Of a stretch of 64,000 nt of DNA, positions 912-19,507 are shown one piece after another. Location of the stretch: the sequence record OZ035759.1; one strand, written 5' to 3'. This DNA is from Mosigvirus mar005p1. A program made the translations under genes and the position numbers. The first letter of the stretch is position 1. Each line of letters starts with the position of its first letter. Under the pieces are notes generated by a model, which saw nothing but the letters and a program-made list of their open reading frames with translations, did not search any database and was not told where the DNA came from.

Positions 912-2426
912 ATGACAGATATTAAAGTACATTTTCATGATTTTAGCCATGTAAGAATTGAATGCGACGAAAGCGTGTTCTATGAATTACGCGACTTTTT
1001 TAGCTTTGAAGCCGATGGGTACAAATTCAACCCGCGTTACAAATATGGGAACTGGGATGGTAGAATTCGACTTTTAGATTACAGTCGTTTGTTACCATAT
1101 GGACTTGTAGGACAAATAAAAAAGTTCTGTAACAATATGAGTTATTCTGTATGGATTGACCCTAAAATCTTTGAGACCGAAGACCTTACCAGGGAAGATT
1201 TTGACACATGGCTTTCTAAACAAGAAATTTATTCCGGCAATGCCAAAATCGAACCACATTGGTATCAAAAAGATGCAGTATATGAAGGACTAGTTAATCG
1301 TCGTCGAATTTTAAACCTTCCGACATCAGCAGGTAAATCACTAATCCAAGCACTTTTAGCTCGGTATTATCTAGAGAACTATGAAGGTAAAATTCTCATT
1401 ATCGTCCCTACAACAGCATTGACAACCCAGATGGCTAATGATTTTGTTGATTATCGATTGTTTAGTCATTCGATGATTAAGAAAATTGGCGGTGGTGCCG
1501 ATAAAGCGGACAAATCTAAAAACGACGCTCCAATTATTGTTGGCACATGGCAAACAGTAGTTAAGCAGCCTAAAGAATGGTTCTCTCAGTTCGGTATGAT
1601 GATGAACGATGAATGCCACTTAGCAACAGGCAAAAGTATTTCTTCAATCATTGCAGGATTAAATAATTGCATGTTTAAATTCGGTTTATCCGGCTCATTA
1701 AGAGACGGAAAAGCCAATGTAATGCAGTACGTAGGTATGTTCGGCGAAATCTTCCGTCCTGTTAGCACGTCTAAATTAATGGAAGACGGTCAGGTAACTG
1801 AGCTTAAGATTAATAGTATTTTCCTTCGTTATCCAGACGAATTCGCCACCAAATTAAAAGGTAAAACATACCAAGAAGAAGTTAAAATTATTACCGGACT
1901 AAAACGACGTACAAAGTGGATTGCTCAACTTTCAGTAAAATTGGCTAAGAAAGACGAGAACGCCTTTGTAATGTTTAAACACGTTACACACGGTAAAGAA
2001 ATATTTGAAGCTATTAAAGAGCTTGGATACGAAAAAGTTTATTACGTATCAGGTGAAGTTGATACTGAAACACGTAATGCGCTTAAAGTCATGGCAGAAA
2101 ATGGTAAAGGCATTATTATTGTTGCATCATATGGAGTATTCTCTACTGGTATTTCAGTCAAGAATCTTCATCATGTTATTTTTGCCCATGGTGTTAAATC
2201 AAAAATTATCGTACTTCAAACCGTAGGTCGCGTGCTTCGTAAGCATGGTTCTAAAGCTGTTGCTACAGTTTGGGATCTCATCGACGATGCAGGTGTAAAA
2301 CCTAAATCATTAAATACTAAAAAGAAGTATACTCATCTTAATTACTTGTTAAAACACGGTATTGATCGTATCCAACGTTACGCTGATGAGAAATTTAACT
2401 ATGTAATGAAAACAATTAATTTATAA
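912..2426 (+). CDS. uvsW: UvsW DNA/RNA helicase (SF2)
   Basis: 504 aa; near-identical to recalled T4 UvsW; Walker A PTSAGKS and DECH box. Confidence 0.95.
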   Translation: MTDIKVHFHDFSHVRIECDESVFYELRDFFSFEADGYKFNPRYKYGNWDGRIRLLDYSRLLPYGLVGQIKKFCNNMSYSVWIDPKIFETEDLTREDFDTWLSKQEIYSGNAKIEPHWYQKDAVYEGLVNRRRILNLPTSAGKSLIQALLARYYLENYEGKILIIVPTTALTTQMANDFVDYRLFSHSMIKKIGGGADKADKSKNDAPIIVGTWQTVVKQPKEWFSQFGMMMNDECHLATGKSISSIIAGLNNCMFKFGLSGSLRDGKANVMQYVGMFGEIFRPVSTSKLMEDGQVTELKINSIFLRYPDEFATKLKGKTYQEEVKIITGLKRRTKWIAQLSVKLAKKDENAFVMFKHVTHGKEIFEAIKELGYEKVYYVSGEVDTETRNALKVMAENGKGIIIVASYGVFSTGISVKNLHHVIFAHGVKSKIIVLQTVGRVLRKHGSKAVATVWDLIDDAGVKPKSLNTKKKYTHLNYLLKHGIDRIQRYADEKFNYVMKTINL

Positions 2427-18724: not shown

Positions 18725-18760
18725 ATCTTTTTAAACTTTTTCTGCCCTAAACGCACAAAA

Positions 18761-18778
18761 GGGAGACCGAAGTCTCCC
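18761..18778 (-). terminator. rho-independent terminator (GGGAGAC UUCG GUCUCCC then UUUU) after the 59-aa basic ORF
   Basis: perfect 7-bp stem, UUCG loop, U4 tract. Confidence 0.6.
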
Positions 18779-18783
18779 TAAAA

Positions 18784-18963
18784 TTATGCAATAACCTTTC
18801 CAAAACGAGAAGCATCATCTCGAAGAACTGCACGTGCTCTGCGCATGATCTTCTCAACTGTTTGATTAATACGAGAGTTCGACCCACGCTTGTAGCCAGC
18901 GCGTTTAGAGGTACCATCAACTTTCTTTTCAACTGCTTTCTTTGCTTTAGCTTGTTTTGCCAT
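18784..18963 (-). CDS. 30.9: small basic protein, 59 aa (MAKQAKAKKAVEKKVDGTSKRAGYKRG...), 30.9 position
   Basis: ATG 18963 to TAA 18784, ends just before the terminator hairpin; preferred over track ORF 18747..18932, which reads through the hairpin. Confidence 0.5.
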   Translation of the reverse strand: MAKQAKAKKAVEKKVDGTSKRAGYKRGSNSRINQTVEKIMRRARAVLRDDASRFGKVIA

Positions 18964-19258
18964 TATAAATTCTCTTTAAATGAAAATGCAGGACTTATTG
19001 GCATTGCCTGCGCAAGCCCTCAAGGGGAACATAGGTTTTGGATATTTAACGACAGGATAACCATAAACCTCGTCATCATACCAACCACGACTTAGACAGA
19101 TAACCTTTTTCTGACGCGTGATAGTACAAAATACATTCAAGAGGTACACCGTAAAACTGCCGGGGTCTTAAAACTATAATGATTCGCAAATCATTAATCA
19201 GACAGTTCGACGGCTCCTCGATTTTCTAGCCGCACTAAGGTAGCGAATCACCTAAAAC

Positions 19259-19507
19259 TTATTTAAGGGTAATAACAAAATGACGTACTGCTTTACGAGC
19301 TGCAGAAGCCAAAGGCTTAGCATATTTCAGTTCATCTTTTGCTTCCAGTTCAGAGGCCAAAGCTGCCTGTACCGGGTTCAGATGTTTGAAATATCGCAGG
19401 ATTTCAAGAGCTTCGGCTTCAACATCAATAGATGCGCCATAGTTTTCATGACCATTATTCCATGCGTTTCGTTGCAGTTCAAGAGCGTGTTGTAATTGTT
19501 TAATCAT
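19259..19507 (-). CDS. rIII: RIII lysis-inhibition accessory protein
   Basis: 82 aa; near-identical to recalled T4 RIII. Confidence 0.9.
   Translation of the reverse strand: MIKQLQHALELQRNAWNNGHENYGASIDVEAEALEILRYFKHLNPVQAALASELEAKDELKYAKPLASAARKAVRHFVITLK

Follow-up and report, generated by a model that had tools for sequence, protein, structure and literature searches.

A ToxI-like antitoxin RNA unit and a conserved pseudoknot in the non-coding rIII–30.9 spacer of a T4-like phage

In the 64,000-nucleotide (nt) stretch of Mosigvirus mar005p1 analysed here (OZ035759.1; hereafter the window), the genes rIII and 30.9 are separated by a gap of exactly 295 nt (18964..19258), which is non-coding, conserved and modular. 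The gap begins with a structurally intact orphan unit of the antitoxin RNA ToxI, termed M1, and further contains a pseudoknot supported by covariation, termed PK. Our favoured reading, which we hold to be probable with modest confidence, is that the gap is an accessory counter-defence RNA locus composed of independent structured-RNA modules and co-transcribed with rIII, with M1 as an orphan copy of ToxI. An initial annotation made from the sequence alone had recognised the gap as real and non-coding, with the same bounds, and had offered a small structured RNA, a recombination hot spot or a degraded gene remnant as explanations. The first of these is supported and can be made specific: the gene strand carries a ToxI-type pseudoknot unit, a second, covarying pseudoknot and several hairpins.

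M1 (19220..19258, minus strand) is a single-copy ToxI-like unit, or pseudo-ToxI, identified by blastn and by alignment of the pseudoknot stems. It comprises the 39 nt immediately after the rIII stop codon, UUUU-AGGUGAUUCGCUACCUUAGUGCGGCUAGAA-AAUC (19258..19220), and corresponds to a single 36-nt ToxI repeat from ToxIN, both a toxin–antitoxin system of type III and a system of abortive infection. If ToxI is numbered as Blower et al. 2012 (PMC3475682) imply, its positions A1..A32 are found at 19253..19224 of the window, while the 5′ tail UUUU abuts the stop codon of rIII. A blastn search of plasmids with a 47-nt M1 query returned tandem copies at 178 places in 59 plasmids. Outside phages, M1 matches only tandem arrays of 36-38-nt units, and every array inspected lies directly upstream of, and in the same orientation as, an annotated ToxN/AbiQ gene (labelled 'type III toxin-antitoxin system ToxN/AbiQ family toxin'). 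The inspected arrays are those of P. atrosepticum pPA21A and of E. coli pTA141-2 and pU90-1, together with a fourth on E. coli pNMEC-O75B that was reached via the M1 of another phage; for pTA141-2, Tandem Repeats Finder reports 5.6 copies of AGGTGATTTGCTACCTTTAAGTGCAGCTAGAAATTT, which is the published ToxI repeat. This is further supported by a search of 5,426 complete E. coli genomes, where M1 is the sole part of the 295 nt to find a match (105 places in 40 genomes, all of them plasmid-borne). The initial annotation had overlooked the similarity to ToxI.

The structural features of ToxI are retained in M1. The unit is 91% identical to the pPA21A-type repeat and 88% identical to classic ToxI, and shares with the bacterial loci the stems G2G3U4/A13C14C15 and N9G10C11/G23C24N25 as well as an A-rich 3′ tail with a ToxN site. 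Stem 1 is kept as G2 G3 U4 with A13 C14 C15, and stem 2 (9-11/23-25) is kept via the compensatory pair U9C/A25G, such that all six stem pairs form. Across 19 bacterial and phage units, 94% of the stem cells are paired compared to 20–66% in slid controls, and none of 500 shuffles reaches the observed value; stem 2 is 100% paired in this set, with UA, CG, AU and GC/AU exchanges. M1 also retains C27 and U28 (G26 C27 U28 A29 G30, GCUAG), i.e. the bases of ToxI that contact ToxN and whose mutation abolishes antitoxicity (PMC3475682). The 3′ tail GAAAAUC has an extra A before the cleavage site and presents a GAAAU-type ToxN motif (AA/AU), as in the pPA21A-type repeats. While bacterial ToxI loci consist of 3-6 tandem repeats followed by a terminator and then toxN, M1 is a single repeat that lacks a toxin: neither a terminator nor toxN follows it, and the next gene is the unrelated 30.9, encoding 59 amino acids (aa). 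M1 is thus an orphan unit in phage intergenic DNA, on the same strand as rIII and 30.9.

M1-like sequence is present in about 109 phage records, and M1 is both accessory and allelic. RB69 (NC_004928; 7344..7606 of locus L233 in our set), the reference Mosigvirus of ToxIN/TifA studies, keeps all modules of the spacer except M1. The window reads TAAG-[32 nt of M1]-AAATCGAGG and RB69, at the corresponding site, TAAGTAAATCGAGG, a clean absence of 32 nt; the published RB69/TifA experiments therefore do not test M1. Where M1 is present, the alleles resemble different bacterial antitoxins. The allele of L016 is 91% identical to classic ToxI, that of L026 is 97% identical over 33 nt to E. cloacae ToxI (E 7e-10), that of L025 is 89–91% identical to E. 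cloacae ToxI, and those of T4 and T2 are 84–85% identical to the type of Pantoea and of E. coli pCV839. The four divergent toxN leaders that we retrieved, whose ToxN is 37–42% identical to the E. coli protein, carry distinct repeats, as do the arrays described above. The T4 unit aligns best (84%) with ToxI of Pantoea and of E. coli pCV839-15-p3, and both share an unusual A4/G13 non-pair.

ToxI units were also observed in unrelated phages, where the near-perfect ones lie in contexts of expressed RNA. The T5-like Klebsiella phage pzk-kv23 (OR231919.1, L234 1498..1575) carries 1.8 near-perfect ToxI repeats inside a tRNA cluster, with tRNA-Ile immediately before them and a partial duplicate of tRNA-Ile behind. 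E. coli phage Bas88 (PQ850628.1, L235 ~1500..1545) has a single near-perfect unit followed by an intrinsic terminator, and weaker matches occur in Vibrio JSF12, in Salmonella T5-like phages and in Pectobacterium DU_PP_I.

We then compared the gap with its counterparts. DNA homologous to it occurs in 775 phage records, and 33 distinct rIII–30.9 spacers of 120–416 nt (from the window, T4, T2, other T4-like records and 25 IMG/VR loci) were aligned on the gene strand. The long spacer is thus no accident of the window genome, since 33 distinct T4-like phages retain one. The spacer of T4 comprises 244 unannotated nt (NC_000866 130541..130784), and lengths elsewhere are 288 nt in T2, 398 nt in MN01, 163 nt in LF82-5, 120 nt in EcNP1, 204 nt in STML-198 and 146 nt in PM2. 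The spacers are mosaics assembled from a limited set of modules, each of which can be present, absent or reordered: M1 is missing from RB69 and the hairpin module M3 from T4, EcNP1 consists of the 120-nt core only, and MN01 contains an extra module of 136 nt. The recombination hot spot suggested earlier is supported in this sense, as gain, loss and reordering of modules among close relatives. In T4 (L004 2042..2285) we observe a ToxI-like unit, UGGAGAUUCACUGCCUUAGUGUGAGCUAAAUC, the hairpin module M2, PK and both small hairpins, and no M3. Some modules are far better conserved than the silent sites of the adjacent rIII. The window, T2 and RB69 share an 89-nt block of M2 without any difference, and the PK blocks of the window and STML-198 agree at 91%, whereas the third codon positions of rIII agree with those of the window at 70% in T2 and at 52% in STML-198.

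The PK module (19030..19081, minus strand) was defined by covariation and a covariance model, and its block, GACGAGGUUUAUGGUUAUCCUGUCGUUAAAUAUCCAAAACC or a variant thereof, is found in 33 of the 33 spacers. In stem P1, GAC (19074-19072), followed by G, and AGG (19070-19068) pair with CCU (19056-19054) and GUC (19053-19051), and in P2 the A-rich tail GUUAAAUAUCCAAAACC pairs through its end with the loop of this hairpin. In 24 distinct sequences 82% of the cells are paired, compared to 20–50% in slid controls, and 8 of the 11 pairs change on both sides. Examples from P1 are GAC/GUC, GUG/CAC, GUC/GAC and GUU/AAC, while P2 offers UGUGAG/CUCACA along with GAUGG/CCAUC. In the clade of the window the covarying P2 register is down to two G-C pairs, while the neighbouring UGGUUAU/AUAUCCA register forms 6 of 7 pairs and hardly covaries; the exact pseudoknot in the window is therefore uncertain. 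The covariance model detects a sole copy in the window (19027..19081, 73.8 bits). Counts of G-U and A-C combinations (9 versus 8) do not discriminate between the strands, and PK is assigned to the gene strand from its context. A conserved sequence before PK, GUAUGAUG, resembles by eye a -10 TATGAT. It was rejected as a promoter element, since a transcript starting there would leave out the 5′ strand of P1, which covaries, and since not every phage retains the hexamer.

PK also occurs outside the rIII–30.9 spacer, in metagenomic phage contigs. In a cluster of 12 tRNAs it makes up all of the 58 nt that separate tRNA-Asp from tRNA-Pro (L049 6795..6851, minus strand); it adjoins tRNA-Pro and tRNA-Leu in a second contig (L160 9136..9191, minus strand) and follows tRNA-Ile in a third (L184 1358..1412, plus strand), and it is further found in long non-coding stretches of related contigs. 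Both genomic niches, the rIII–30.9 spacer and the surroundings of tRNA genes, are thus common to PK and the ToxI units. In its predicted architecture, PK, which carries UAAAU, recalls the published description of CptI of the CptIN system of Eubacterium rectale (PMC4627078), an H-type pseudoknot of ~45 nt whose long adenine-rich loop crosses stem 1 and holds an AAAU-type stretch. In contrast to CptI, PK is single-copy, has no toxin partner and was found in phages only. No match to PK was found in eight toxIN loci, four of which were searched with the PK covariance model and four, the divergent leaders, by blastn-short.

The remaining modules of the gap are hairpins on the minus strand. M2 (19141..19219) is a long irregular hairpin from the minimum free energy fold, GAGG..CCGU..AACUGUC [inner hairpin 19178..19195] GGCAGUU..ACGG..CCUC. 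Its 89-nt block is identical in ATK47 as well. L014 and L015 have CCAU/AUGG instead of CCGU/ACGG, and L012 and L013 show intermediates one step away. The first nucleotides of M2 after M1, GAGGAG, look like the beginning of a second, decayed ToxI repeat, and are at most such a decayed start. At the same junction (19212..19220, AUCGAGGAGCC), just downstream of rIII, we observe a GGAG motif. GGAG is the recognition sequence of the T4 endoribonuclease RegB, and the product of rIII reportedly counteracts the activation of RegB via ribosomal protein S1 by inhibiting it (PMC9409239); the occurrence of the motif beside rIII may be a coincidence. M3 (19086..19120), defined by alignment and absent from T4, has the form CACG-CGUCAGA[AAAAGGUUA]UCUG-..-CGUG, and in LF82-5 (CAUG..CAGC..GCUG..CAUG) both stems are altered on both sides. 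A mini hairpin, GU(U/A)CCCYUNGAGGGCUUG (19013..19030), is present in most spacers at shifting positions, including right after the rIII stop codon in L020, L031, L032 and L035, and its stem covaries (CCCU/AGGG versus CCUC/GAGG in L023). Upstream of the ribosome-binding site (RBS) of 30.9 lies a further hairpin, GCAGG[CAAUGCCAAUAAGU]CCUGC (18988..19011), which has CUGG..CCAG instead of CAGG..CCUG in STML-198; unrelated GC-rich hairpins occupy the same site elsewhere. These two small hairpins include the two palindromes already pointed out in the initial annotation, CCCTCAAGGGG (19017..19027) in the mini hairpin and GGCATTGCC (19000..19008) in the pre-RBS hairpin, both of which are confirmed. 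The 30.9 leader (18964..18987) consists of a U-rich tract, AUUUUCAUUU (18978..18987), read from the sequence and not called as a terminator by the terminator scan, a Shine-Dalgarno-like AAAGAGA (18971..18977) and a spacer to the start codon at 18963.

These features allow a mechanism to be proposed for the counter-defence reading. The gap is very probably transcribed together with rIII, because no terminator lies between rIII and M1 and because in T4 early, middle and late promoters all drive rIII (PMC9409239). In hosts carrying ToxIN, the endoribonuclease ToxN would be released once the phage-induced shut-off halts the resupply of short-lived ToxI. As a 3′ portion of the rIII transcript, M1 would be produced early as well as late and in between, fold as a ToxI pseudoknot and be cut by ToxN at the GAAAAU tail. 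The cut M1 would then remain bound as a product-like inhibitor of ToxN, allowing the phage to escape abortive infection, a mechanism that has been shown for the pseudo-ToxI of phage PhiTE (PMC3475682). PK, M2, M3 and the two small hairpins may act as autonomous RNA units, most likely as additional decoys or as processing elements within this locus, and the last hairpin with its U-tract could set the ratio of RNA modules to 30.9 mRNA. We infer the transcription of the gap, its folding in vivo, the binding and inhibition of ToxN by M1 and the roles of the other modules.

Several observations weigh against this mechanism. The window holds one copy of M1 and no tandem array, and the wild-type PhiTE locus with its 1.5 repeats is non-protective until it is expanded (PMC3475682). 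The loop U16-A20 of M1 is 2 nt shorter than in ToxI, and the nearest 5′ AAAU falls within the stop region of rIII, so that its distance from A1 exceeds that of natural arrays by 7 nt. T4 carries a ToxI-like allele and is nevertheless restricted by E. coli ToxIN, against which it needs TifA. This could reflect antitoxin specificity, as antitoxins are toxin-specific and classic E. coli ToxIN might not be recognised by an allele of the Pantoea type; this assignment of the T4 and T2 alleles is weak, as it is derived from a 33-nt global alignment only, and blastn of the T2-type M1 against plasmids gave no match. Furthermore, bacterial counterparts of PK, M2 and M3 were found neither in plasmids and E. 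coli genomes, nor in GTDB species representatives (a strict pattern scan gave two chance hits), nor in the four divergent toxIN loci. Finally, the single-sequence folding energy of the whole gap is unexceptional (z = -0.63) and ordinary on either strand, and the case for structure therefore rests on covariation.

A part of these observations is what one would expect if M1 were an inert recombination scar and the remaining gap ordinary untranslated sequence with hairpins of no specific function. The single copy, the inactivity of the wild-type 1.5-repeat locus of PhiTE, the shortened loop and displaced 5′ cleavage site, the sensitivity of T4 to E. coli ToxIN and the fact that RB69 manages without M1 all agree with such a scar. 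However, decay should erase the stems, which are instead kept by compensatory changes in several phage lineages, along with C27 and U28. Separate alleles follow separate ToxI clusters of bacteria, phages of unrelated families likewise carry ToxI units in RNA-gene contexts, and the adjacent modules are more conserved than the silent sites of rIII. We consider a scar unlikely, though it deserves to be taken seriously.

The position of PK and of the hairpin with its U-rich tract, which always lie upstream of 30.9 in T4-like phages, would also be consistent with a mainly cis-acting untranslated region. The gap would then protect or process the 3′ end of the rIII mRNA and provide a structured 5′ leader governing how stable 30.9 mRNA is or how it is translated, PK would serve a phage RNA-binding protein, for instance the basic 59-aa gp30.9, as its operator, and the likeness to ToxI would be incidental. 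T4 is known to use leader pseudoknots and hairpins in translational control (PMC3014915), and the RegB-type GGAG at the M1/M2 junction is adjacent to rIII, whose product modulates RegB. The order of modules, however, varies widely, with PK located 30 to about 300 nt from the 30.9 start and other modules in between, and PK also occurs in unrelated phages without rIII or 30.9, between tRNA genes or in non-coding RNA islands. As the homology to ToxI is left unexplained too, a mainly cis-acting role seems rather unlikely to us.

The third explanation of the initial annotation, a degraded gene remnant, did not hold. A small protein-coding gene in the gap, or its remnant, could be suspected from open reading frames (ORFs) of 37 and 57 codons on the gene strand, from short hypothetical proteins of 37-42 aa in GenBank (G53_00216, L002 1376..1489; a20_46, L003 1321..1449) and from a frame through PK that reads Y-D-x-x-V-x-G-Y-P-x-V-K-x-P-K-P in several distant phages. 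Alignment across T4-like genomes shows that the spacer is conserved but reveals no conserved protein-coding frame. Indels between near-identical relatives are not multiples of three: 1-nt indels shift the PK frame between phages that are >90% identical (window, ATK47, T4). This semi-conserved frame has no start codon in ATK47, G53, a20, T2 and LF82-5, several of them among the closest relatives, and stops at differing places. There is no codon periodicity, since third positions are no more variable than first and second positions (0.63 versus 0.74 and 0.67 bits), and the paired substitutions in PK (GAC..GUC, GUG..CAC, GUC..GAC) are non-conservative for a protein while they keep the base pairing. 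A coding remnant is effectively excluded and in our estimate extremely improbable. Because of the indels, the missing starts and the lack of excess variability at third positions, the short hypothetical proteins of G53 and a20 are most likely miscalls.

Among the closest known systems is the pseudo-ToxI 'escape locus' that Blower et al. 2012 (PMC3475682) described in the Pectobacterium phage PhiTE. Like M1, it is a non-coding homologue of the ToxI repeat that a phage carries between genes; the two are orphaned from any adjacent toxN, and both share the compensatory pair U9C/A25G and the extra A before the cleavage site. They differ in that PhiTE is rv5-like and the window T4-like, and in that wild-type PhiTE has 1.5 repeats with no complete unit and GAC at 27-29, whereas M1 is one complete unit with the native C27 U28 A29 and a loop 2 nt shorter. 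Moreover, M1 forms part of a spacer of several RNA modules that follows directly on rIII, and while function has been demonstrated for expanded PhiTE loci, M1 is known from its sequence. Mimicry by orphan ToxI is thus already known from PhiTE, to which M1 adds an apparent T4-like case. TifA, the product of T4 gene 61.4 (PMC9391042, PMC10853763), belongs to the same phage group and shares with M1 the presumed target ToxN. TifA is, however, a protein that sequesters ToxN on abundant RNAs, whereas M1 would mimic the antitoxin as an RNA, and the two would form independent layers.

Our literature search, whose coverage is incomplete, found no report of a ToxI-like unit in T4-like phages or in the rIII–30.9 spacer, the papers on T4, toxIN and TifA included. 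To date, experiments have documented that RNA mimics a type III antitoxin in one phage, PhiTE, while for the T4-like phages, the main model of the ToxIN arms race, only the protein inhibitor TifA has been discussed. A ToxI-type unit that many T4-like phages carry at one fixed locus, its alleles tracking different ToxI clusters, would add a second, RNA-based layer if the proposed reading is true. The comparison also exposes a conserved pseudoknot and several structured RNAs in the unannotated 244-nt spacer of T4, a phage in which, according to a 2010 review, no trans-acting regulatory RNA had been characterised (PMC3014915).

One may go further and regard the spacer, including that of T4, as an 'RNA counter-defence island', i.e. 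a slot that collects, swaps and loses small structured decoy RNAs. M1 alleles would then be matched to ToxN clusters, PK, the additional module X described below and the hairpins would each be directed against another host defence that binds or cuts RNA and would neutralise it, and modules would shuttle to and from the tRNA clusters of unrelated phages. We put this forward as a tentative extension, with clearly less confidence than the reading of the gap itself.

Further structured elements were observed in the spacers of related phages. Module X, absent from the window, is a structured RNA of ~136 nt (ACGGCAAGUGCAUGCUACC...GCUAACGGUGUGCAACAGAUAAGAG) that many T4-like phages carry as an insertion in the spacer (L006 825..960, L016 1252..1387, and L017, L018, L020, L021, L023, L025-L028, L030, L033, L035, L092 and L119). 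RNAalifold predicts 38 pairs for it, 16 of which change on both sides. Module X has no match in Rfam, and neither an nhmmer profile nor blastn-short shows similarity to T4 rnaC or rnaD. PK and, in related phages, module X are candidate new RNA families. A further shuffled hairpin that is absent from the window has the conserved loop UGUACG and the flanks CCCAC...(G/A)UAAC. It is located at the spacer start in L016, L017, L018, L028 and L010 (PM2) and just before the 30.9 RBS in L026, and its stem covaries (CAUG/CAUG, CUCUG/CAGAG, CUUUG/CAAAG).

Searches for other known RNA elements in the gap were negative. ARAGORN finds no tRNA or tmRNA in the gap or in eight homologous loci, in agreement with the initial annotation, which had seen no tRNA either. 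The covariance models of Rfam 15, preQ1-I and other riboswitches included, give no relevant match in the gap even at E<=10. As Rfam 15 lacks a ToxI model, a genuine ToxI array goes unrecognised as well, and this negative is uninformative for M1. A simple pattern scan detects neither a sigma-70-like promoter nor an intrinsic-terminator pattern inside the gap. PeSL elements of T4-like phages consist of an early sigma-70-type promoter joined to a stem-loop. The gap, having no promoter-like site, does not contain such a cassette. A blastn-short comparison of T4 rnaC and rnaD with all 33 spacers, the window included, returned only chance matches of 9-12 nt. The description of the gap as relatively GC-rich holds weakly (40.7% compared to 37.8% for the window), and the plus-strand ORF at 18862..19095 mentioned earlier does exist in the ORF list.

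The window belongs to a T4-like Mosigvirus whose best match is phage a20 (99.3% identity over 901 nt). The flanking genes were identified by PHROG and Pfam context and from annotated relatives: rIII (19259..19507) and 30.9 (18784..18963; 59 aa, PHROG 1427, unknown function) are both encoded on the minus strand, as is gene 31. In the record of ATK47 an 'ori type 2 repeat' is annotated within the spacer (L001 1775..1784). Directly after the stop codon of 30.9 (18757..18781, minus strand) the window has a canonical GC-rich hairpin with a U-run, GGGAGACUUCGGUCUCCCUUUU, which is unreported by the simple terminator scan and is annotated as a terminator in relatives.

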